From Escherichia coli (GTDB taxonomy: Bacteria; Pseudomonadota; Gammaproteobacteria; Enterobacterales; Enterobacteriaceae), in NCBI RefSeq assembly GCF_003334405.1, contig NZ_QOWM01000012.1: a DNA stretch of 64,000 bases, one strand, 5' to 3'. The notes beneath the pieces are model-generated. The model worked only from the letters and a program-made list of their open reading frames with translations. It made no database searches and was not told where the DNA came from. Position numbers and translations under genes: made by a program. This document shows positions 1 to 12,509 of this stretch, piece after piece; position 1 is the first letter of the stretch; the number at the start of each line of letters is the position of its first letter.

Positions 1-36
1 CAACATGTCCCAGGTGACGATGTATTTTTCGCTCAT
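1..36 (-). CDS. gpt: xanthine-guanine phosphoribosyltransferase, first 12 codons only (gene runs off the window start)
   Basis: Reverse complement of 1-36 reads ATG AGC GAA AAA TAC ATC GTC ACC TGG GAC ATG TTG = MSEKYIVTWDML, the Gpt N-terminus; divergent from pepD as in E. coli. Confidence 0.6.
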   Translation of the reverse strand, partial: MSEKYIVTWDML

Positions 37-296
37 GTGAAGTGTCCCAGCCTGTTTATCTACGGCTTAAAAAGTGTTCGAGGGGAAAATAGGTTGCGCG
101 AGATTATAGAGATCTGGCGCACTAAAAACCAGTATTTCACATGAGTCCGCGTCTTTTTACGCACTGCCTCTCCCTGACGCGGGATAAAGTGGTATTCTCA
201 AACATATCTCGCAAGCCTGTCTTGTGTTGACAACATTTTCTGCTAACCCTGTGACCTGCAATACTGTTTTGCGGGTGATCGACAAGGAGACTTAAC

Positions 297-1754
297 GTGT
301 CTGAACTGTCTCAATTATCTCCACAGCCGCTGTGGGATATTTTTGCCAAAATCTGTTCTATTCCTCACCCGTCCTATCATGAAGAGCAACTCGCTGAATA
401 CATTGTTGGTTGGGCAAAAGAGAAAGGTTTCCATGTCGAACGCGATCAGGTAGGTAATATCCTGATTCGTAAACCTGCTACCGCAGGTATGGAAAATCGT
501 AAACCGGTCGTCTTACAGGCCCACCTCGATATGGTGCCGCAGAAAAATAACGACACCGTGCATGACTTCACGAAAGATCCTATCCAGCCTTATATTGATG
601 GCGAATGGGTTAAAGCGCGCGGCACCACGCTGGGTGCGGATAACGGCATTGGTATGGCCTCTGCGCTGGCGGTTCTGGCTGACGAAAACGTGGTTCACGG
701 CCCGCTGGAAGTGCTGCTGACCATGACCGAAGAAGCCGGTATGGACGGTGCGTTCGGCTTACAGGGCAACTGGTTGCAGGCTGATATTCTGATTAACACC
801 GACTCCGAAGAAGAAGGTGAAATCTACATGGGTTGTGCGGGGGGTATCGACTTCACCTCCAACCTGCATTTAGATCGTGAAGCGGTTCCAGCTGGTTTTG
901 AAACCTTCAAGTTAACCTTAAAAGGTCTGAAAGGCGGTCACTCCGGCGGGGAAATCCACGTTGGGCTGGGTAATGCCAACAAACTGCTGGTGCGCTTCCT
1001 GGCGGGTCATGCGGAAGAACTGGATCTGCGCCTTATCGATTTCAACGGCGGCACACTGCGTAACGCCATCCCGCGTGAAGCCTTTGCGACCATTGCTGTC
1101 GCAGCTGATAAAGTCGACGTCCTGAAATCTCTGGTGAATACCTATCAGGAGATCCTGAAAAACGAGCTGGCAGAAAAAGAGAAAAATCTGGCCTTATTGC
1201 TGGACTCTGTAGCGAACGATAAAGCTGCCCTGATTGCGAAATCTCGCGATACCTTTATTCGTCTGCTGAACGCCACCCCGAACGGTGTGATTCGTAACTC
1301 CGATGTAGCCAAAGGTGTGGTTGAAACCTCCCTGAACGTCGGTGTGGTGACCATGACTGACAATAACGTAGAAATTCACTGCCTGATCCGTTCACTGATC
1401 GACAGCGGTAAAGACTACGTGGTGAGCATGCTGGATTCGCTGGGTAAACTGGCTGGCGCGAAAACCGAAGCGAAAGGCGCATATCCTGGCTGGCAGCCGG
1501 ACGCTAATTCTCCGGTGATGCATCTGGTACGTGAAACCTATCAGCGCCTGTTCAACAAGACGCCGAACATCCAGATTATCCACGCGGGCCTGGAATGTGG
1601 TCTGTTCAAAAAACCGTATCCGGAAATGGACATGGTTTCTATCGGGCCAACTATCACCGGTCCACACTCTCCGGATGAGCAAGTTCACATCGAAAGCGTA
1701 GGTCATTACTGGACACTGCTGACTGAACTGCTGAAAGAAATTCCGGCGAAGTAA
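297..1754 (+). CDS. pepD: aminoacyl-histidine dipeptidase (cytosol non-specific dipeptidase)
   Basis: 485-aa ORF, GTG start, M20-family metallopeptidase hallmarks (HLDMVP, GADNGIG, EEEGE); synteny with gpt. Confidence 0.95.
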   Translation: MSELSQLSPQPLWDIFAKICSIPHPSYHEEQLAEYIVGWAKEKGFHVERDQVGNILIRKPATAGMENRKPVVLQAHLDMVPQKNNDTVHDFTKDPIQPYIDGEWVKARGTTLGADNGIGMASALAVLADENVVHGPLEVLLTMTEEAGMDGAFGLQGNWLQADILINTDSEEEGEIYMGCAGGIDFTSNLHLDREAVPAGFETFKLTLKGLKGGHSGGEIHVGLGNANKLLVRFLAGHAEELDLRLIDFNGGTLRNAIPREAFATIAVAADKVDVLKSLVNTYQEILKNELAEKEKNLALLLDSVANDKAALIAKSRDTFIRLLNATPNGVIRNSDVAKGVVETSLNVGVVTMTDNNVEIHCLIRSLIDSGKDYVVSMLDSLGKLAGAKTEAKGAYPGWQPDANSPVMHLVRETYQRLFNKTPNIQIIHAGLECGLFKKPYPEMDMVSIGPTITGPHSPDEQVHIESVGHYWTLLTELLKEIPAK

Positions 1755-1766
1755 TTATTTGATTTG

Positions 1767-1804
1767 CTGCCGGATGGCGTTTAATCGCCTTCCGGCAGTT
1801 TCAT
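1767..1804. terminator. bidirectional intrinsic terminator between pepD and prfH
   Basis: Inverted repeat ctgccgga...tccggcag followed by T-rich run immediately after pepD stop. Confidence 0.5.
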
Positions 1805-1810
1805 CCTTCA

Positions 1811-2368
1811 TTATCCTTCGATAAAAGCCATCCCTGTAAATGTCCGTCGCGGGTTGCCACGTTCAATCTGGTGATGGAACATTCGCCGCTGCGATTTCAG
1901 CGCCGCGCTATTTTCCTGTTGCTGTTGCTCCAGCTTCCAGGCAATCAGCAATCGTGCCAGCCGCTTGTTAGCATGCTGACTACGCTCTGACTGAACCTTC
2001 ACGCTAATACCGGATGCCAAATGCGTGGCGCGTACCGCCGAGTCGGTTTTATTGACATGTTGACCGCCCGGCCCCGACGAACGCAGCGTCTCATAACGGA
2101 TTGCATCCGATTGTTCCTGCTCATCAGCGGTAAAACGCCCAATGCCCAGAAACCAGTTTTTGCGCCCATGATGAGGCCGATACGGACTCGGACAAATCCA
2201 CTGAATAGTGCCACACCAGCTTTCGCTTAATGCCCATGCGTTATCGCCATCGAGAGAAACCAGCGCCGAACGCAGTGTGTCAGAGTAGCGGCCCGTTTCT
2301 GTTTCCAGCACCGTTACCGCGACGTCTTGCCGGGTAAAAACGACCAACAGAGAAGAACGCTGCGCCAA
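1811..2368 (-). pseudogene. prfH: peptide chain release factor homolog PrfH, 5-prime disrupted
   Basis: C-terminal part carries GGQ release-factor motif ([16 protein letters not shown]); N-terminal part of the ORF is out-of-frame read-through from an rtcB-like fragment. Confidence 0.6.
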
Positions 2369-2546
2369 TCGGGTAGCCGCGTCCGGGGTGTAAATCTGGC
2401 ATCCCCACTACGCGCTGCATGTTGGGTAAATTTGCCGTGGTGTGTAATTGTTGGATCGCTAAACTCTCGATCCACAGGTCATCAGATGCGATGGTAAATA
2501 CCGCATCGGATAAGGGACGAATATATTTGCCCATGTACCATTCCAT
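2280..2546 (-). pseudogene. ykfJ: RtcB-family RNA ligase, N-terminal fragment only
   Basis: First ~55 aa match RtcB N-terminus including [16 protein letters not shown] metal-binding motif, then frame is lost and overlaps prfH frame: deletion scar. Confidence 0.5.
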
Positions 2547-2680
2547 TTATACTCGTCATACTTCAAGTTGCATGTACTGCGACTGCGTTCGTTCACCCCA
2601 GTCACTTACTTATGTAAGCTCCTGGCGATTCACTCGCTTGTCGCCTTCCTGCAACTCGAATTATTTAGAGTATATAAATA
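2538..2680 (-). repeat. ERIC/IRU intergenic repeat
   Basis: Reverse complement contains GTGAATCGCCAGGAGCTTACATAAGTAAGTGACTGGGGTGAACG and ACATGCAACTTGAAGTATGACGAGTATAAATGG, matching the enterobacterial ERIC consensus. Confidence 0.7.
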
Positions 2681-2851
2681 TAAAAATCAGGAAATGGCAG
2701 ACGAATCCAGGGCAAGAAAAAAAGAATTAATCCTGGAAAGGTCTGCAAAGAGTCATTGATAAAGGATTTGTCATGATTTACCTCCTTGCAGTTTGTGGAA
2801 TCAGAAAACGCGCACATACCAGGCGGGCGTTATTTTCATTGCAAGCTGGAT

Positions 2852-3304
2852 TTAATGTTGCGGTTTATATCGCATATAAAAATTAGTAAACCACGCTCCC
2901 CGGCATTCAACGCGCTGCTGCTTAACTGTCTGAAAACCATAACGTTCAAAAAAGGGTTTTGCGGTTATGCTTGCGTCCACCGTAAGTTCGGATTCAGACT
3001 TAATCAAAGGTTTTAACAAAGCGCTGGCAACCCCACGGCGGGTGTATTCAGGGTCAACAAATAACATATCGATATAATGTTCAATGCGGGAAATAAAACC
3101 AACCGGTTGTGCATTAATGATCGCAACCCACACTTGTGATTTCGCGAGTTTCTCCTTCCAGCGAGATTCGTCAATCTGCGCCCAGGCGGAAATTTGTTGT
3201 GGTGAATAATGCTGACTGGCGGTCATCGTAACCGCTCTAATGAAAATAGCGCATAGTTGCTGAAAATCGCCAGGCTGATAGTTTCTTATTTGTATGTTAT
3301 TCAT
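2852..3304 (-). CDS. yafP: GNAT-family N-acetyltransferase YafP
   Basis: 150-aa ORF, last gene of dinB-yafN-yafO-yafP arrangement. Confidence 0.85.
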   Translation of the reverse strand: MNNIQIRNYQPGDFQQLCAIFIRAVTMTASQHYSPQQISAWAQIDESRWKEKLAKSQVWVAIINAQPVGFISRIEHYIDMLFVDPEYTRRGVASALLKPLIKSESELTVDASITAKPFFERYGFQTVKQQRVECRGAWFTNFYMRYKPQH

Positions 3305-3313
3305 AATATAAAT

Positions 3314-3712
3314 TCAAAAACGCATGCGAAACGCTTCTGCCATTTTCCCAATTTTATGCATTTGGTTGTTATCTCGAGCCAGTTTATGAGGTTCAGGTTT
3401 CAGAATGGCAATGAGCAACCATGCTTGCTCATCAAACGCCCCCTGACAATATACCAAATGCGCTTCGTCATTCGTTCTGCTGAATTGGCGCAACTGTGGC
3501 GGAAATGGATTATTCTCATTTGCCAGATGAATATGAGCAACTCGCTCAAATTTGATTAATGGCCAGGTAAAGGAGTCGTCGTAGAGTGCATCGCGACCAA
3601 ATATATCTGGCAAAACACCGTCACGCTTATAGGAAATAAAATCCGCCGTTAACGCATCAAGTTCCTCTGCTGTAAGTTGCAGGCGAATAAGTTTTGTTTT
3701 GAATACCCGCAT
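3314..3712 (-). CDS. yafO: ribosome-dependent mRNA interferase toxin YafO
   Basis: 132-aa ORF directly downstream of yafN, conserved operon position. Confidence 0.85.
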   Translation of the reverse strand: MRVFKTKLIRLQLTAEELDALTADFISYKRDGVLPDIFGRDALYDDSFTWPLIKFERVAHIHLANENNPFPPQLRQFSRTNDEAHLVYCQGAFDEQAWLLIAILKPEPHKLARDNNQMHKIGKMAEAFRMRF

Positions 3713-3714
3713 CC

Positions 3715-4008
3715 TTATTCCTTAAAGTCATTGAAATCATCATCCGTCATATCATTAAGATATTGTTCAGCGCGGCGTGTAATTTCCTCTAATCTTGCAG
3801 CACTTGGACGGAAGCGCGCCTTTATGGGCTTTTTCTCCTCTTGTTCAGCAAGCATGTCCATTAACGCTTCGAATGCGCTGGCACTTAAGAGATATCCTGC
3901 GGGGCGATTATTAGAAAGAACCGCAACCGGTTGATCAATAAAGTATTTAGCTGGGTTTTTACGTAACTCAGTGATATTGACCGATTTTTCAGCGAGAATT
4001 CGATGCAT
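3715..4008 (-). CDS. yafN: antitoxin YafN (Phd/YefM-like)
   Basis: 97-aa ORF between dinB and yafO; acidic C-terminus typical of antitoxins. Confidence 0.85.
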   Translation of the reverse strand: MHRILAEKSVNITELRKNPAKYFIDQPVAVLSNNRPAGYLLSASAFEALMDMLAEQEEKKPIKARFRPSAARLEEITRRAEQYLNDMTDDDFNDFKE

Positions 4009-4059
4009 ACAGTGATACCCTCATAATAATGCACACCAGAATATACATAATAGTATACA

Positions 4060-5115
4060 TCATAATCCCAGCACCAGTTGTCTTTCCATTTGCGGGTCAA
4101 GCAACGTCACATGCAGCCCCACCAGACGCACACCGCGCCCGCCGCGGCGTTCATCCCAGGTTTTACGCGCGGTGGCGATTAGATCAGCTTTATTCAGCCG
4201 CGGCCAGACGTGCTCCTGGGTGGTTTGCTGAAAATCGTCGAACTTTAATTTCACCCCCTGGCGAGCAATCAGTAAATCAGGTTTTACCTTTGCCAGACGG
4301 CGTTCAAGTTCCGGATACAGCCGCTCGATAATCGCTTCACATTCAGACCAGTGATGAATATCTTCCGCCATCGTGCGTTCCACGCCGACGGATTTTCGCA
4401 ACCGTTCGCTGTTAACATCGCGTTCGTCAATCCCCTGACTACGCTCCCACAAAATGCGGCCAAATTTGCCAAAGCGTTTAAGCAGCATCACCAGATCACA
4501 CTTTTGTACATCACCGCAGGTCCGCAGCCCCATCGCTTCCAGTTTTGCCGCTGAGACTTTGCCGACGCCGGGGATTTTTGCCAGCGGTAAGGTTTGTAAA
4601 AATGCCGGAACTTCTGCCGGCGTAATCACAAACTGGCCGTTGGGTTTATTCATGTCGGAGGCGATTTTGGCGAGAAACTTTACTGGTGCCACGCCCGCAG
4701 ACGCCGTCAGTTGCAGCTCGTTGAAGATTGTCTGGCGGATTTCCTGGGCGATGAGGGTCGCAGAACCGTGGCAATGGACGCTATCGGTGACATCGAGATA
4801 AGCCTCATCCAGTGACAACGGTTCAATGCGCGAGGTGTAGCGCGAGAAGATTTCACGGATATGATTTGAGGCTTCTTTGTAGGCGTCAAAGCGCCCCGGA
4901 AGCAAGGTGAGATGTGGGCATAATTTGAGCGCCATCCCTGTCGGCATAGCGCTACGTACGCCAAATTTACGCGCGGGATAATTGGCGGTGCTGATCACCC
5001 CCCGACGTTCGCGGCTGCCGCCAATAGCAATAGGGATATCGCGCAGGGCGGGATTGTCGCGCATCTCCACTGCGGCGAAAAAGCAGTCCATATCCACATG
5101 AATGATTTTACGCAT
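4060..5115 (-). CDS. dinB: DNA polymerase IV (Y-family translesion polymerase)
   Basis: 351-aa ORF starting [22 protein letters not shown], canonical DinB N-terminus. Confidence 0.95.
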
Positions 5116-5129
5116 TGCTCACCTCTCAA

Positions 5130-5149
5130 CACTGGTAAAGTATACAGTG
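5130..5149 (-). promoter_or_regulatory. LexA operator (SOS box) of dinB
   Basis: cactggtaaagtatacagtg = CACTGTATACTTTACCAGTG on the coding strand, CTG-N10-CAG palindrome 15 nt upstream of dinB ATG. Confidence 0.8.
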
Positions 5150-5185
5150 ATTTCAGGGTTTGAGAAATGCGTAAAGATTCAGCAT

Positions 5186-6109
5186 TTAACGCGTTCGCTG
5201 CGAAAGCACCTGCTGCTTATCCAGCTTTTGCACCAGCGGCTGCACCACTTTATCCCCATGCTGACCAAAGTATTGATACAGCGTATCGGACGCACTTTTG
5301 GTCAGCACCATAATCTCAATGCGCCGGTTGCCCGCGCTTTGCGGATTTTTGGAATCCAGCAGCATCTGGTCCGCCATTGCGCTTACCTGCATCACTTTAT
5401 CTTCCGGCATTCCGGCCTCTTCCAGCACCCGACGAGCCGAAAGCGCGCGGTCACCCGAAAGGTTCCAGTTGTTGTAGATATTGTTTTTGTAGGCCATCGC
5501 ATCGGTATGCCCGGTAATAATAATTTTATTATCGAGCGAGTCGAACACTGGCGCGAGCTCCACCAGCAGCGTTTTAAAGAACGGCATAATCTTCGCGCTG
5601 CCGCGTTCAAACATATTGCGGTTCTGGTCGTCTTTAATCAGCACGCGTAATCCCTGGGGAACAATCTCCATCTCCAGATTCGCTTCCATATGCGCATCAC
5701 GGGCAATGGTGTTGATACTGGTTGCCAGCTCACCAAGCTCGGTGGCGGATTTCTTCTTCAGCAGCGCCGTTTTCTCATTCACATCACGCGCTTTTTTCTC
5801 CGTCTCTTCCGGCACCGCCACGGTGGCAGGTTTTGGCGGATGAGACGGGCTGATTTTATTTAACGGCGACAGCCCACCACCGTTAAAAATCGACTGCCCG
5901 TGCAGCGCGGCGATAATGCTTTCACGCTCGGATTTACTGACGCTGTTGACAATCCACAGCGTCATAAACAGCGCCATCATTGCCAAAGTAAAGTCGGCGA
6001 ACGCCACCTTCCACGCCCCGCCGTGGTGCCCGGCATGATTCTTTTTGATCTGCCGCCGGACGATGGTGGTTTTTGCCCCACGATCGCGGCGGTTACCCGT
6101 CTTTCTCAT
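5186..6109 (-). CDS. lafU: lateral flagellar stator protein LafU (MotB-like)
   Basis: N-terminus ...HGGAWKVAFADFTLAMMALFMTLWIV matches the MotB TM/plug region; C-terminal OmpA-like domain; ATG placed at MRKTGNRR 2 nt after lafT stop. Confidence 0.85.
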   Translation of the reverse strand: MRKTGNRRDRGAKTTIVRRQIKKNHAGHHGGAWKVAFADFTLAMMALFMTLWIVNSVSKSERESIIAALHGQSIFNGGGLSPLNKISPSHPPKPATVAVPEETEKKARDVNEKTALLKKKSATELGELATSINTIARDAHMEANLEMEIVPQGLRVLIKDDQNRNMFERGSAKIMPFFKTLLVELAPVFDSLDNKIIITGHTDAMAYKNNIYNNWNLSGDRALSARRVLEEAGMPEDKVMQVSAMADQMLLDSKNPQSAGNRRIEIMVLTKSASDTLYQYFGQHGDKVVQPLVQKLDKQQVLSQRTR

Positions 6110-6111
6110 GC

Positions 6112-6975
6112 TTATTCTTGCTCCAGCATCGCATTCACCCACGCGTCGAGGTTGGCGAAGGTCGGTTTGGACGCCAGATGCAGTAGCTTACGCCCGGCGT
6201 CCACCGCCAGCAGCGTCGGTTTGCCGCCTGCCTGCGCCACCAGCACGGTACGCACGCATTCCAGCAAAGAATGTTCTGCCCGCGCCTGTTGTTCCATGGC
6301 GTTGGCGAGTGGGTCCATCAGGCAGTAGCAGATAAAGACGCCTAAAAATGTCCCCACCAGCGCTGCCGCCACTTTCAGGCCAATCAGGGCGATAGAGCCG
6401 TCAATCGACTGCATGGTGATGATGATGCCCAACACCGCCGCACAAATGCCAAACCCCGGCATCGCTTCGGCGGTACGTTGCAGCGAGCGCGACGGCGTTA
6501 GCAGCGACTCTTCCGCGGTGTCCAGTTCCTGATCGAGAATGCCTTCCAGTTCATGGGCGTCGATTTTACCCATCGCCATCAGGCGAAAGTTATCGGCAAT
6601 AAAGGTCACCAGCCGCTTCTGGGTTAACACCAGCGGGTATTTCTGGAAAATGGTGCTCTCTTCCGGTTGCTCAATATGTTGATCCAGCATGCGCAGACCA
6701 CCGTTTTGCACCATTTCGAGTAACTCATACAGGCACATTAATAGCTGGCGCTGAAACTCCGGCCCGAGCTGTTTTTTACTGATTACGCCTTTAATTTGAT
6801 GGGCAATCTCTTTCAGCACATGTTTCGGGTTACCAATAATCATCGCCCCGAAACCGGCACCCAAAATAATGATCATTTCCGCCGGTTGCCAGATAGCCAC
6901 TAATTGCCCGCCCGCTTCAAAATAACCGCCAAATACGCAGCCGAGCACCACCAGTAAACCTAATATTTTTTGCAT
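6112..6975 (-). CDS. lafT: lateral flagellar stator protein LafT (MotA-like)
   Basis: 287-aa multi-TM protein upstream of and coupled to MotB-like gene. Confidence 0.85.
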   Translation of the reverse strand: MQKILGLLVVLGCVFGGYFEAGGQLVAIWQPAEMIIILGAGFGAMIIGNPKHVLKEIAHQIKGVISKKQLGPEFQRQLLMCLYELLEMVQNGGLRMLDQHIEQPEESTIFQKYPLVLTQKRLVTFIADNFRLMAMGKIDAHELEGILDQELDTAEESLLTPSRSLQRTAEAMPGFGICAAVLGIIITMQSIDGSIALIGLKVAAALVGTFLGVFICYCLMDPLANAMEQQARAEHSLLECVRTVLVAQAGGKPTLLAVDAGRKLLHLASKPTFANLDAWVNAMLEQE

Positions 6976-6987
6976 GATTTCTTCACT

Positions 6988-7704
6988 TTAATTCGGATAG
7001 ACAAAATCACGAATTTTCTGCGCGATCTGTTTATTCAGTTGACAAATTCGGGCCTCGGTTAGCCCTAATACCAGCGCAATCTCTTTGAGATTCATCTCAT
7101 GCTGGTAATACATGGAGAGGATCAGTTGCTCTTTTTCGCTTAATTGTGAAAGCGCCTGTTGCAGCATTTGCTGGGTGACAAACTGATCTTCCAGCTCCCT
7201 GCCAGCAAGCAGAATGCCAGGCCCTTCGCCGTTCAGCAGTTCGTCCAGGCTGGCGAGCGTTTCCGCCCCTTCCAGTTGCTGATATTCGAGATAATCTTCA
7301 TGCGAGATCCCTTCCACGGCCAGTTCTGACCACTCCGGTTCGTGCCCCAGTTTTTTGCGCGTTTCGCGAATCAGATCTTTCATCTGATGATATTTCTGTC
7401 GCAGCTGGCGCGGTCGCCAGTCGAGAGCGCGCAGCTCATCCAGGATCGCGCCGCGAATACGGTGCACGGCATAGCCCGCAAAACCTTCGTCCGGCAGCCC
7501 GTAGCGACGGATGGCATTAAGCAGCCCCATTAACGCCGTTTGTTCCATATCCTGACGATCAATAATGCAATTACACTGCGGGGCAAGTTGCCGCACCACT
7601 TTACGCACCAACGGTAAATAGGCCTGCAAGTAGTGGCTCTCCTGCTGCGGGGTTAATACCGGCGCGGCAGCAAATTCTTCCGACTCGAATACATCCTGTA
7701 GCAT
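6988..7704 (-). CDS. lafS: lateral flagellar sigma factor LafS (FliA/sigma-28 family)
   Basis: 238 aa; sigma-70 region 2/4 like segments and C-terminal HTH (LKEIALVLGLTEARICQL). Confidence 0.85.
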   Translation of the reverse strand: MLQDVFESEEFAAAPVLTPQQESHYLQAYLPLVRKVVRQLAPQCNCIIDRQDMEQTALMGLLNAIRRYGLPDEGFAGYAVHRIRGAILDELRALDWRPRQLRQKYHQMKDLIRETRKKLGHEPEWSELAVEGISHEDYLEYQQLEGAETLASLDELLNGEGPGILLAGRELEDQFVTQQMLQQALSQLSEKEQLILSMYYQHEMNLKEIALVLGLTEARICQLNKQIAQKIRDFVYPN

Positions 7705-7723
7705 ATTTATATCCGCCTGGTGA

Positions 7724-8191
7724 TTACTGGAAGACCACTTTTTTCACCAGCAAATCCTTATACGGTGCGCTCATTTTGCGACGCTGAAGATCTTTCTTTA
7801 ACGCGTCAGAAATGAGTTTGCGGATGGCGGATATTTTCATGCCACGCAAATCTTCAAATTTCATTTCCGTCAGGCATTCAACCGCAATACTTTGATACAG
7901 CGGCTCCTGATGTTTTATTTTTTCCGCTTCTTTGTCACTGGCGACCACCATCACTAATTCCGCCGACAAATAATGGTCCGCGCCGTTGTTGTCATGCAGC
8001 GTGACAATGGTTTCCGGCAACGTCACAAACACGCTTTTGCTTTCATCCAGGGTTTCCACCGTTTCCGTCTGCGCGGCGGCAGTCGGTTTTCCTTTTCCGG
8101 CATAATGATGCCAGACACCCCATCCAGCTCCGGCCCCCACCACCAACGCCAGAACGGCGCTGACCACGCCCGCCACCACGATTTTCTTCAT
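7724..8191 (-). CDS. lafF: FliL-like basal-body-associated protein LafF
   Basis: 155 aa, single N-terminal TM helix, position between fliK-like and fliA-like genes. Confidence 0.7.
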   Translation of the reverse strand: MKKIVVAGVVSAVLALVVGAGAGWGVWHHYAGKGKPTAAAQTETVETLDESKSVFVTLPETIVTLHDNNGADHYLSAELVMVVASDKEAEKIKHQEPLYQSIAVECLTEMKFEDLRGMKISAIRKLISDALKKDLQRRKMSAPYKDLLVKKVVFQ

Positions 8192-8198
8192 ATTGCCT

Positions 8199-9260
8199 TT
8201 ACACTTTGATCAAAACGGATTCGTTCTGTTGAAATTGAGGCGCATCATCAAGCTGTAAGGCGGCACTCACCTCTTCCTGCTGATGGCCCGACTGTTGTTG
8301 TTGCTGCGACTGCCCTTCGGAGGAGACCTGTACGTTCACCTCCATAAAATTTTGCGCCGTCAGATGCTGGCGGAGATCGTCGCTAAACTGCTGTAACGCG
8401 CGGCAAACTTCACTTTGGTTCGCGCCGATGTGCACCATCAGTTTGCCGTTGTCGAGTTGTACGGCGATCTCGAGCTTGCCAAGCGACGGTGGATCGAGAC
8501 GGATGGTGGAGATCTGCTGTTGTTTGTTGAGCTGAAAGTGGATCTGATCTTTCAAAAGCGTCGTCAGTTTTTCGCCCAGTTCGTCCATCGAAAGCGTGGC
8601 TGGTTTGGCGACAATCTCCTGATGCTCGCTGAGCAGCTCCGGCGTCTTAACCTGCAACACCGCACGCGCAATAACCGGTTCGCTGTCCGGCACTTTTTCC
8701 GTTTTACGCTCGACCTGCGGGCGCGCGGTCACACGGGTTAGTTCAGGTTTTGGGCGAGCTGGCTGTGTTGAAACGCGCGGCTGCGTCGGCGCAATGGCAT
8801 GTAAATCTTCACTGGCGTAAGTCGCCAGTCTGGCCTGCTGTTCGGGCTTCGCCTGTGGCAACTGACTGATCAGTTCCTGCAACTGCGGCGGCAACGGCGT
8901 GAGTTCCTGCTGTTGCGTCTGGCGTTGCGGCGCGTTTTGCACCACCGCTTTCGTCAATTGCTGGATAACCGGCGATGTTGCGACGTTTCGCGGCTGCGGC
9001 GTGTGCTGATGCGGCGCGGCAGGTTGTGGAAGTAACAGCGCCATTAGCGCCTGCATCGCCACCGGATCGTTCTCCTGCGGGCGCGTCGCCTGTTGCTGAC
9101 TGGTTTTAGCGCTATGAACGCGCTCCGCCACCGCCGCGACCGCCATTTTCGGCAGGGTAAACGCGGGCGCGTTTTCACCGCTCACCGGCGGTAAAATATC
9201 CGCCTTCAACGAAGCGGTTTCCGCAAGCGTTCCGAGCGTGGCAAGCAATGCCGGATTCAT
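8199..9260 (-). CDS. lafE: hook-length control protein LafE (FliK-like)
   Basis: 353 aa, Q/P-rich central region and conserved FliK C-terminal domain (IRLDPPSLGKLEIAVQLDNGKLMVHIGANQSEV). Confidence 0.7.
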   Translation of the reverse strand: MNPALLATLGTLAETASLKADILPPVSGENAPAFTLPKMAVAAVAERVHSAKTSQQQATRPQENDPVAMQALMALLLPQPAAPHQHTPQPRNVATSPVIQQLTKAVVQNAPQRQTQQQELTPLPPQLQELISQLPQAKPEQQARLATYASEDLHAIAPTQPRVSTQPARPKPELTRVTARPQVERKTEKVPDSEPVIARAVLQVKTPELLSEHQEIVAKPATLSMDELGEKLTTLLKDQIHFQLNKQQQISTIRLDPPSLGKLEIAVQLDNGKLMVHIGANQSEVCRALQQFSDDLRQHLTAQNFMEVNVQVSSEGQSQQQQQSGHQQEEVSAALQLDDAPQFQQNESVLIKV

Positions 9261-9568
9261 GACTTCTCCGAAAGTAAATTAACAATTGAGTAGGCGAGCA
9301 CACCTTCCTGATGCCGCTGATGCTGTTCCATACGCGCCTTCAACACTTCTGCGCGCTGCTCGCGCCGTTTAATCAGGGCATTAAACGCGCCGTACAAATG
9401 CGCCTTTACCGCACAGAACTGCGCCGCGTCGGTTTCCGCCGCCGCGTAATCGTGAAACTGGCGCATCAACTGCTGATGCAGTGCCGGAAGGCGTCGCCAG
9501 CGTTGCTTGTCGAGGGCTTCATTCATCGCCTCGACCAGTGCGAAAAGTTGCCTGCGTTGTTTTTCCAT
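9257..9568 (-). CDS. lafD: FliT-like export chaperone LafD
   Basis: 103-aa helical protein between fliS-like and fliK-like genes. Confidence 0.55.
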   Translation of the reverse strand: MEKQRRQLFALVEAMNEALDKQRWRRLPALHQQLMRQFHDYAAAETDAAQFCAVKAHLYGAFNALIKRREQRAEVLKARMEQHQRHQEGVLAYSIVNLLSEKS

Positions 9569-9572
9569 CGTC

Positions 9573-9965
9573 TTAACCCAGCTTGCCCGAAAGCCCTTCC
9601 CAGCCTTCGCGCAGGTTGCTTAAGATCAGCATCACTTCATCGATTTTCTCTGCCGATAATTCGCCGCTGGCCTCATACAATCGGTAAACGCAGTGGTCAT
9701 AGAGTCGCGAAAGGTTGACCACCAGCTCACCGCCGGTTTCAAACTCCAGCGAACTGGTAAGCGCATTGAGAATGTCGATGCATTTATTGATGCTCTGGGC
9801 TTTCTTCTCGAAACGCCGCCCTTCAATATGGCTTTTGGCGCGTTCCAGCTCGTCCATCAGGCCAGAAAACAGCACCAGCACCAGTTCCAGAGGCGATGCC
9901 GCCGCAGTACGCGCCGCGAGATCGATCTCTTTATATTGTGAATAGCCGTCCTGTACTTGGTACAT
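9573..9965 (-). CDS. lafC: flagellin-specific chaperone LafC (FliS-like)
   Basis: 130 aa; FliS-like N-terminus MYQVQDGYSQYKEIDL. Confidence 0.8.
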   Translation of the reverse strand: MYQVQDGYSQYKEIDLAARTAAASPLELVLVLFSGLMDELERAKSHIEGRRFEKKAQSINKCIDILNALTSSLEFETGGELVVNLSRLYDHCVYRLYEASGELSAEKIDEVMLILSNLREGWEGLSGKLG

Positions 9966-9987
9966 CTTTAGGGATATTCCTTCTGAG

Positions 9988-11304
9988 TTACGCGAATGCC
10001 GCCATGCTGGCTTTCATGGTGTACACCTCGACCAGCGTGTTGGTGTACTCCTCGAGATAACGGTCGTAGTTGGCGTTATAGGTATCGGTAAGCTGATCGC
10101 CTTCGTCCTGAATTTTGCTCATCTGATCGTCAATGTTCTGCTGGCGCAGGGTGATGATGCCGTTGCTGGAGTCCGTGTAGGTGTTAATCAGGTCGTCCAT
10201 CTGCGCCACCATGCTGTTGTCGCCAACGAAAATAGAGGTCAGACCGTCAGGATTTTTCGCCATTTCGTCGTTGAACTGGTCGGAGTCAATCTGTAAGTGG
10301 CCGTGAGAATCAAGCGTGATGCCATAGTCAACAATCGACACGCCGTTGTAGTTGGCATGGGCGATGTCATCGAGCTGGTTCGCCAGTGAATTGAGTCCGG
10401 CGTCGCCTGCAAATACCCCGGCGCTGGTACTGTCATCACCATGAGTAGTCAGTGAATCAACCGTATCAATCAAGGTGTTATAGGCATCGACAAAGGTCTG
10501 TACTTTCTCCTGACTGGCGCTGGAATCTTCGCTGATGTTAAAGGTAGTGAGATCGCTGTCAGAATCGCTGACTTCGGTGAAAGTCATGGTGACGCCGGGG
10601 ATCACATCATCAAATGTATTGCTGCTGTTGGTGATCTCAGGCCCTGTGGCGCTACCGAGATGAATAATCGCGTCCTGAGCGGAGGAAACATCCGTGGCAA
10701 CGGGCGCGCTGGCGCTATCGTTGCTGGCATCATGCCCCGTTACGCTCACCGAAAACGCGCTCTGCGCCCCGGTGCTATCCGAGGTGAGCATAATCGTGGT
10801 GGTGCCGTCGGTTTTTACCAGCGCAGCCGACACGCCCGGATTGTCATCGGAGTCGTTAATCGCATTCACCAGTTCACTGGCGTCGATAAAACCGTCGCCG
10901 TCACCGTTCTGATCCGCCGCCGCCAGATCAATATCCATGGTGCTGTCGCCCATGGTCATTTCGAACGTCCCCGTCGCAGAAAAGGTGTCATCACCCATAC
11001 TGAACGTGGTCTGCTGCCCCTGCGCCAGTTGTTCAACGAAAAACGAGTAGCTTCCCGCCTGCGCCTGCGAGTTAGCGGAAACGGTCGCCGAGTCATTATT
11101 GCTGGTGGCAGCGAAGGTCACCGGGCCGTCGGTATCGCTGTTTAGCGCATCCACGGCGCTCTGGAAATCGCTCAACGCCGAGCTGAGCGAGTCCAGGCCG
11201 CTGCTTTCGGCATCCAGCTCCGTTTGCTTCTCCTGCAAGTTTGCCGCCTGAGTGGCGACATCTGCATAAGCGATTTCTTGCGCAATGGTTCTTGGGTTGA
11301 TCAT
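9988..11304 (-). CDS. lafB: filament cap protein LafB (FliD-like)
   Basis: 438 aa, S/T/D-rich, conserved FliD termini. Confidence 0.8.
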   Translation of the reverse strand: MINPRTIAQEIAYADVATQAANLQEKQTELDAESSGLDSLSSALSDFQSAVDALNSDTDGPVTFAATSNNDSATVSANSQAQAGSYSFFVEQLAQGQQTTFSMGDDTFSATGTFEMTMGDSTMDIDLAAADQNGDGDGFIDASELVNAINDSDDNPGVSAALVKTDGTTTIMLTSDSTGAQSAFSVSVTGHDASNDSASAPVATDVSSAQDAIIHLGSATGPEITNSSNTFDDVIPGVTMTFTEVSDSDSDLTTFNISEDSSASQEKVQTFVDAYNTLIDTVDSLTTHGDDSTSAGVFAGDAGLNSLANQLDDIAHANYNGVSIVDYGITLDSHGHLQIDSDQFNDEMAKNPDGLTSIFVGDNSMVAQMDDLINTYTDSSNGIITLRQQNIDDQMSKIQDEGDQLTDTYNANYDRYLEEYTNTLVEVYTMKASMAAFA

Positions 11305-11486
11305 TGATGACTCCGGATAACGATGTCAGGTTATTGGCAAAAGGCGTGCCAATAATTTTTATGTGAATAATCAATAGATTGAAAAATGGGCGGAAAGGCC
11401 ATTTCCGGTCTGGTGGAAATACGCCTGCCGCAGAAAGAACAACACCGCCCGCAGGCGGTGTTGAGACTGATGACAAACGCAACACT

Positions 11487-11585
11487 GCCTGATGCGCTGC
11501 GCTTATCAGGCCTACAAGGTTTCTGCAATATATTGAATTTGCAATATTTTGTAGGCCGGATAAGGCGTTCACGCCGCATCCGGCA
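11487..11585. repeat. REP pair (BIME) between lafA and lafB
   Basis: gcctgatgcgctgcgcttatcaggcctac and gtaggccggataaggcgttcacgccgcatccggca. Confidence 0.7.
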
Positions 11586-11594
11586 AGTCCGCCA

Positions 11595-12509
11595 TTACTG
11601 CAGCAGGCTGGAAACCATGCTGGACATGCTGTTGGACTGTTTCAGCATGGTGATGCCGGTCTGCATCAGCACCTGCTGTTTGGTCATATTGGACGCTTCC
11701 GTAGCGTAGTCGGTATCCATGATGTTACCGATAGCAACTTCGGTGTTGTCCTGCATACTGGTCAGGTTATTAGCCGTGTCGTTCAGACGGTTGATAGACG
11801 CACCCAGCTTGGACTGGATCTGCGAAACATCATCCATCGCGGTAGAAATGCTGGTGATCATCTGGTTAGCCGAGCCAGACGCAGTCAGTTCAGTACCGCC
11901 AGAAACGCCTGCGGTGCCTGTGGTGTCTGCCTGATCCGCACTGAAGGAGTTGCTGATAGCAGAAAGGTCAGTCACCAGCGTGTTCAGTTGGCTAGAGATG
12001 TTCACGGTCATGGTGTCGGAAGATTCCGCGCCCACCTGGAAAGTTACCGCGCTCTGGAACAGGCCGTCAGTACCGGTGTTGCTGGTGCCGGAAACACCGA
12101 ACAGGTTGGTGCCGCCGTAGGTGGTGTTTTGCAGCATGTCAGACATCTGCTGGCCCAGTTCGTCGTATTCGTCCTGCATCGCCTGCAGATCGTCGTCGCT
12201 GTAGGTGCCGTTCGCTGCCTGAGTTGACAGGTCTTTCATACGACCCAGCACGTCAGACATTTCGTCGAACATGCTGTCGGCGGTTTGCAGCATCGCGGTG
12301 GCATCATTGATGTTGCTCAGCGCAACATCCATACCGCTGGACTGTGCTGTCAGACGGTTAGCAATTTGTTTGCCTGCGGCGTCATCGGCAGAAGAGTTAA
12401 TCCGGTTACCTGTCGCCAGGCGTTCCATAGATGTAGACAGAGAAGAGCTGCTTTTGCTGATTGCATTAACGGCGGCCATTGAGGCGTTATTGGTGTTAAT
12501 AGATAACAT
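11595..12509 (-). CDS. lafA: lateral flagellin LafA
   Basis: Start set at MLSINTNNASMAAVNA...; conserved flagellin D0 termini (N-term ...RLATGNRINSSADDAAGKQIANRL, C-term ...MLKQSNSMSSMVSSLLQ). Confidence 0.9.
   Translation of the reverse strand: MLSINTNNASMAAVNAISKSSSSLSTSMERLATGNRINSSADDAAGKQIANRLTAQSSGMDVALSNINDATAMLQTADSMFDEMSDVLGRMKDLSTQAANGTYSDDDLQAMQDEYDELGQQMSDMLQNTTYGGTNLFGVSGTSNTGTDGLFQSAVTFQVGAESSDTMTVNISSQLNTLVTDLSAISNSFSADQADTTGTAGVSGGTELTASGSANQMITSISTAMDDVSQIQSKLGASINRLNDTANNLTSMQDNTEVAIGNIMDTDYATEASNMTKQQVLMQTGITMLKQSNSMSSMVSSLLQ

Follow-up and report, generated by a model that had tools for sequence, protein, structure and literature searches.

Between pepD and yafP of Escherichia coli, two overlapping reading frames on the minus strand resemble parts of two larger proteins, RtcB and PrfH. 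The question raised by this locus is whether the pair represents two small genes in their own right or the remains of a once complete operon and, in the latter case, how the remains were produced. In the present study, this question was addressed in a stretch of E. coli DNA of 64,000 nucleotides (contig NZ_QOWM01000012.1, assembly GCF_003334405.1), which is referred to as the window, and to which all positions refer unless stated otherwise.

The rtcB-prfH operon was defined by Baranov et al. (2006), who found it uninterrupted in CFT073, 042, and UTI89 and described a deletion of approximately 1,000 nt in K12 MG1655, W3110, and O157:H7 Sakai and EDL933, which removed the segment encoding the C-terminus of the upstream gene product together with that encoding the N-terminus of RFH (PMC1586002). 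PrfH was subsequently reported to enter the A site of ribosomes with a decoding center damaged by ColE3-CT or CdiA-CT(ECL) and to release the peptide, after which RtcB2 can mend the 16S rRNA, which is inaccessible to it in the 70S ribosome; in the same study, the K12 copies were regarded as presumably inactive owing to the deletion, and plasmid complementation in MG1655 was reported (Tian et al., 2022; PMC9304027). The intact operon protects ATCC25922 from colicin E3 in vivo, and knock-outs of prfH and rtcB2 in BW25113 behaved as the wild type under colicin E3, "due to the truncation" (Maviza et al., 2022; PMC9223846). The biochemical role of the intact operon and the loss of function of the K-12 copy are taken here from this literature.

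The Locus and Its Identity With K-12

The features of the locus are as follows.

297-1754, plus strand: pepD, flanking the remnants on one side
1811-2546, minus strand: the prfH'/ykfJ' remnant pair, between pepD and yafP
1811-2327, minus strand: prfH' remnant, PrfH codons ~34-204 and the stop codon (1811-1813)
1811-2368, minus strand: prfH' reading frame, 185 aa from a TTG
2280-2327, minus strand: out-of-frame tail of ykfJ', 15 codons of prfH DNA read in the rtcB frame, with the stop codon at 2280-2282
2280-2546, minus strand: ykfJ' reading frame, 88 aa, overlapping the prfH' reading frame
2328-2336, no strand assigned: deletion junction, where a 9-bp imperfect direct repeat survives as one copy, TGCCGGGTA
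2337-2534, minus strand: rtcB2' remnant (ykfJ'), RtcB2 codons 1 to ~66, with MPDLH
2548-2674, no strand assigned: ERIC element, 127 bp, a full-length imperfect palindrome directly upstream of rtcB', between rtcB' and yafP
2852-3304, minus strand: yafP, the other flank, beyond the ERIC element
3314-4008, minus strand: yafO and yafN, between yafP and dinB
4060-5115, minus strand: dinB, beyond yafN

A megablast search of complete E. coli genomes matched the remnant region in all 5,426. Where a record is identical to the window, PGAP/RefSeq labels both frames as partial pseudogenes, namely, "prfH, incomplete, missing N-terminus" and "RtcB family protein, incomplete, missing C-terminus". The MG1655 pseudogenes ykfJ (b0235, 253467-253733) and prfH (b0236, 253702-254202) correspond exactly to window positions 2546-2280 and 2311-1811, respectively, and show the same junction and the same placement relative to pepD and yafP; the annotation of b0236 thus spans 1811-2311 of the prfH' remnant. 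Positions 1-5957 differ from MG1655 at 2 positions, including a pepD SNP at 1196. Within the remnant (1811-2546) there are 0 mismatches, and the sequence is base-identical to MG1655.

The window itself is not MG1655, since the two sequences part after 5957, where the window carries an intact Flag-2 lateral-flagella cluster, whereas K-12 has the lfhA'/lafU' scar. An apparently complete Flag-2 cluster, including lafU, motA, a FliA-like sigma factor, fliD, fliK, and other genes, extends beside dinB from 5186 to ~50000, and positions 5100-12000 were covered by at least 80% in 1,274 of the 5,426 genomes. The source strain retains an accessory Flag-2 module that was lost by K-12, yet has the rtcB-prfH scar of K-12.

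A GC-rich inverted repeat, CTGCCGGATGGCG...CGCCTTCCGGCAG, is located at 1768-1799 between the convergent ends of pepD and prfH'. It looks like a terminator hairpin shared by these two genes; it was not among the hits of a consensus terminator scan.

Remnants of RtcB2 and PrfH

The opening residues of the 88-aa frame at 2280-2546 are MEWYMGKYIRPLSDAVF; its translation, which opens MEWYMGKYIRPLS, has an RtcB-like N-terminus. The conserved start of RtcB2, MGKYIRPLS, lies at 2534, and the K-12 annotation begins four codons earlier at the ATG at 2546. This frame matched positions 1-69 of the 379 positions of the RtcB model NF007153 (E 8e-31, 107.4 bits, cutoff 407) and positions 1-59 of the 356 positions of TIGR03073; NCBIfam places it in the PrfH-associated RtcB family, and the remnant falls short of the curated cutoff for a match over the full ~379 aa of this family (NF007153/TIGR03073). 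The end of the frame is of a different origin, as its translation there is the out-of-frame tail that overlaps the prfH' remnant.

The frame at 1811-2368 matched positions 31-200 of the 200 positions of the PrfH model TIGR03072 (E 5.8e-83) with 277.3 bits, which exceeds the equivalog cutoff of 166.65, and it also matched ArfB weakly (E 3e-8). It remains open for ~172 codons in the window without a stop or frameshift, retains the GGQ peptidyl-tRNA hydrolase motif (residues 120-122 of intact PrfH, with Gln122), and its residues are near-identical to those of full-length E. coli PrfH in a cryo-EM structure (PDB 7sa4, chain 8). The native N-terminus and start codon of full-length PrfH (~204 aa) are absent. 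Therefore, prfH' is a gene fragment and not a functional member of the PrfH family.

Mapping of the Deletion

As an intact reference, we used the locus of strain a15 (L002; comparison loci are numbered in this manner below), in which rtcB (379 aa) occupies 2223-3362 and prfH (204 aa) 1612-2226, with a 4-bp stop/start overlap at L002 2223-2226. Window positions 1700-2334 aligned with L002 1501-2135, and 2328-2584 with L002 3156-3414; the prfH' side was 98.4% identical to L002 1556-2135. The window lacks the 1,027 bp of L002 2136-3162, and since 1027 mod 3 is 1, the coding remnants are fused out of frame. The two-gene module is reduced from 1,751 bp (L002 1612-3362) to 724 bp (window 1811-2534). 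The deletion takes RtcB2 residues ~70-379, with 1 to ~66-69 being kept, and PrfH residues 1 to ~31-33, including the start codon, with ~32-34 to 204 being kept; in terms of gene length, rtcB2 has lost its 3' 82% and prfH its 5' 15%. The overlap between the two genes is inside the deleted interval, so that the overlapping two-gene arrangement of the operon no longer exists in the window.

These results bear out an initial annotation made from the DNA letters, which had described the locus as a deletion scar, with an RtcB N-terminus joined out of frame to a GGQ-containing PrfH C-terminus in a module cut to about 700 bp: the alignment with intact rtcB-prfH loci yielded a single 1,027-bp deletion and fragments instead of small paralogs, and the pseudogene annotations of RefSeq/PGAP and MG1655 and the published deletion (PMC1586002) agree.

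In intact alleles, the 9-bp repeat reads TGTCGGGTA on the prfH side (codons ~31-33) and TGCCGGGTA on the rtcB side (codons ~67-69), and the two copies are exactly 1,027 bp apart in L010-L013 (NC101, IAI39, PKF11, and AHB10 type). We compared 17 alleles, comprising 8 intact and 9 scar alleles, the latter being those of the window, MG1655, O157:H7, 1916D6, 63-2, Z142-2, E. coli C, 47538, and 18-4. The breakpoints were identical in all nine scar alleles, each with one copy of the repeat. Since direct repeats of 9 bp flank the deletion and one copy remains, we infer a short-homology deletion, via replication slippage or illegitimate recombination.

Loss of the Catalytic Residues

In crystal structures of P. 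horikoshii RtcB, the M1 ligands are Cys98/His234/His329, the M2 ligands are Asp95/Cys98/His203, and the guanylylated nucleophile is His404 (PMC9745838); the nucleophile of RtcB2 is His294, which was mutated as H294N (PMC9304027). In an alignment of RtcB2 with the P. horikoshii protein (PDB 4dwr and 1uc2), Asp47/His49 of MPDLH corresponded to Asp65/His67, and Asp74/Cys77 of the NDIGCG motif to the metal ligands Asp95/Cys98. The initial annotation had called MPDLH a metal site. The motif is present; however, because the aligned residues Asp65/His67 are not crystallographic ligands, MPDLH is, as judged from this alignment, a conserved N-terminal motif of RtcB and not a metal site. The real ligands have been deleted: Asp74/Cys77 are located just past the breakpoint, His294 is gone, and no metal ligand is left in the stub. 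On the other side of the junction, the N-terminal residues of PrfH that are lost in truncated copies include a central beta-strand of domain 2 (PMC1586002).

The window was also compared with the intact rtcB2-prfH operons of ATCC25922, CFT073, NC101, and IAI39, which occupy the orthologous pepD-yafP locus and are 95-98% identical to the retained DNA. GGQ of PrfH and MPDLH of RtcB2 are common to both; the window differs in the absence of 1,027 bp, and with it the metal ligands, His294, the stop/start overlap, and the PrfH N-terminus. The copy in the window is incapable of the rescue and repair demonstrated with the intact operon (PMC9304027, PMC9223846).

The Adjacent ERIC Element

The ERIC repeat noted beside the remnants in the initial annotation is genuine, though without a detectable connection with the deletion. 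The element at 2548-2674 is an intergenic palindrome of ~127 bp with a conserved central core and 25-nt terminal inverted repeats; the ERIC2 and ERIC1R primer sites, the identities of which were confirmed in the literature, are found at 2590-2633 with 1 mismatch each (0 expected by chance), and the RNA is predicted to fold into a strong hairpin at -54.5 kcal/mol (z = -8.9). Within the ERIC/IRU family, this 127-bp element is typical and shows nothing unusual. In an Rfam search, it gave (2552-2675, minus strand) a full-length, sub-threshold match to V_AS5 (RF02818, "Vibrio RNA AS5"; 46.5 bits against a gathering threshold of 96, E 2e-8), which suggests that this Rfam family was modeled on an ERIC-like repeat; the only other hit was a chance match to a snoRNA.

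Three allelic states of the ERIC site were found in E. coli. The full 127-bp element is present in the window, MG1655, O157, E. coli C, and 18-4; a 62-bp short form lacking the central 65 bp (window 2585-2649) occurs in several scar strains as well as in a15 (L002 3408-3414) and further intact strains; and the site is empty in NC101 (L010 ~3373). The full element was found in 5 of the 9 scar and 0 of the 8 intact alleles, in what is a small sample of 17 alleles, and short-form scar alleles also occur. The element was ruled out as the cause or boundary of the deletion, being ~210 bp from the junction, with its full, short, or empty state independent of the scar.

Frequency and Secondary Decay in E. 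coli

Of the 5,426 genomes, 2,688 covered at least 80% of a 90-bp probe spanning the junction, and 2,675 covered at least 80% of the deleted interior; the scar and intact alleles are therefore near 50:50 in this set.

The scar shows continuing decay. A second, in-frame deletion of 165 bp was found in the scar alleles of L004, L008, L015, and L016, in which it removes prfH codons ~95-150, including GGQ. It is equivalent to window positions 1977-2141 (L002 1778-1942), is carried by E. coli C and not by the window, and appeared in approximately 4 of 30 evenly spaced rows of the megablast matches. An IS1 lies under the match in the scar locus H1. Across prfH codons 34-204, the ratio of nonsynonymous to synonymous polymorphisms was 11:22 in the nine scar alleles versus 8:43 in the eight intact alleles (odds ratio 2.7, Fisher p = 0.068), which is a trend only, and the rtcB stub had too few sites for this comparison. 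Replacements segregating in the prfH' of scar alleles include the radical changes P79L, P84S, W91L, and S116P. In an allele without the 1,027-bp deletion (L017, strain 99-3311), rtcB is split by ISEc20, an IS110-like element, at L017 2064-4651; through this insertion, the module was inactivated independently.

Other polymorphisms were observed around the locus. The yafNO toxin-antitoxin pair (window 3314-4008) varies in presence and absence (loci L002, L003, L008, L011, L013, L014, and L016); where it is missing, yafP directly overlaps dinB, and yafO of PKF11 carries an internal stop. The first loci compared suggested a linkage, with intact loci lacking yafNO and scar loci carrying it; this was ruled out by E. 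coli C and 18-4, which have the scar without yafNO, and by NC101 and PKF11, which are intact with yafNO. In some intact-operon strains, pepD and prfH are separated by an additional insert of ~820 bp (L003 1564-2371; L012 84-891), which encodes a small hypothetical protein along with a "metal-dependent hydrolase" and is missing from the window.

Discussion

The locus at 1811-2546 is almost certainly the inactivated remnant of the rtcB2-prfH rescue/repair operon, the same as ykfJ'/prfH' of K-12, and the product of one 1,027-bp deletion. Its anatomy, breakpoints, reading frame, population frequency, and secondary decay are matters of observation, and the locus is a non-functional, decaying pseudogene pair. 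The deletion scar has already been annotated and published, and represents a textbook, ordinary case. The reverse history, with a short ancestral locus that gained an insertion to give the forms referred to as intact, can in practice be discounted, as it is the longer form that fits the full-length models of RtcB and PrfH and solved structures.

The deletion between TGTCGGGTA and TGCCGGGTA removed parts of both genes. According to the literature on the intact operon, PrfH occupies the A site when a ribosome is damaged and frees the nascent peptide via GGQ, and RtcB2 then religates the cleaved 16S rRNA; neither peptide release nor religation is possible in the window. The RtcB2 stub consists of ~66-69 native and 15 out-of-frame residues without the metal ligands and the guanylylated His294, and prfH' lacks a start codon, translational coupling to rtcB, and the N-terminal ~31-33 residues.

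The two frames might instead be complete small paralogs, one a mini-RtcB and the other a short release factor with GGQ, given that both are open over 88 and 185 codons and that stand-alone GGQ proteins such as ArfB, to which prfH' shows its weak match, exist. We give this practically no chance: the coverage of both family models is partial, the last 15 codons of the supposed mini-RtcB come from prfH, read in the wrong frame, and the DNA is 95-98% identical to both ends of the intact genes at the same chromosomal place with a single clean gap of 1,027 bp, and the alignment with intact loci refutes it. It is very improbable, if less so than small paralogs, that prfH' is still partly functional, acting perhaps like ArfB as a GGQ hydrolase and being translated from an internal start at GTG 2311 or TTG 2368, which would account for the open frame. 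The GGQ domain and C-terminal part are intact over the ~172 uninterrupted codons, and a reviewer of Baranov et al. pointed to the lack of any check on expression and to a 141-codon reading frame put forward by Pel et al. (1992) (PMC1586002). However, the knock-outs in BW25113 were like the wild type under colicin E3 (PMC9223846), the product would be devoid of a central beta-strand of domain 2, as the authors responded (PMC1586002), the GGQ region itself was later deleted in four scar alleles, and the radical replacements listed above segregate in scar alleles. No sigma-70-like site turned up when 1700-2900 was scanned for promoters, which is weak evidence either way, and a terminator scan of the same interval returned only two terminator-like hits, on the wrong strand inside prfH' and at the level of chance.

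Regarding the origin of the pseudogene pair, one deletion event is favored because the rtcB-side flank (241 bp) is near-identical among scar alleles, with 0-4 differences among them and 3-10 from all intact alleles. A single origin of the scar is thus inferred. The prfH-side flank of the scar alleles is as diverse as scar-versus-intact pairs, with many polymorphisms common to intact alleles, and the junction nonamer occurs in scar alleles as TGCCGGGTA, TGTCGGGTA, and TGCCGGATA. This diversity, together with the fact that the three variants differ exactly where the parental repeat copies or their alleles differ, points toward repeated slippage at the same 9-bp repeat. Nevertheless, the uniformity of the rtcB side is what one event predicts, and later point mutation, or recombination events with intact alleles that terminated in the repeat, could also give the variants; later recombination or mutation is most simply the account of both the variants and the prfH-side diversity. 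In a sample of 17 alleles, we regard a repeated origin as unlikely. A shade less likely again is an extended form of it, in which microhomology-guided loss recurs and is kept at ~50:50 in E. coli, to which the junction variants are the only hint; if true, it would point to a trade-off between protection from colicin E3 and the cost of the module instead of a neutral accident.

For the single-deletion remnant favored here, the significance of the locus goes little past correct annotation. The additions of the present study are base-exact breakpoints with a 9-bp microhomology, a frequency near 50:50 in 5,426 genomes, and evidence of continuing decay. The scar explains why K-12-type strains and approximately half of sequenced E. 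coli are without the PrfH/RtcB2 defense against 16S rRNA cleavage of the colicin E3 type, a state that has already been established experimentally.
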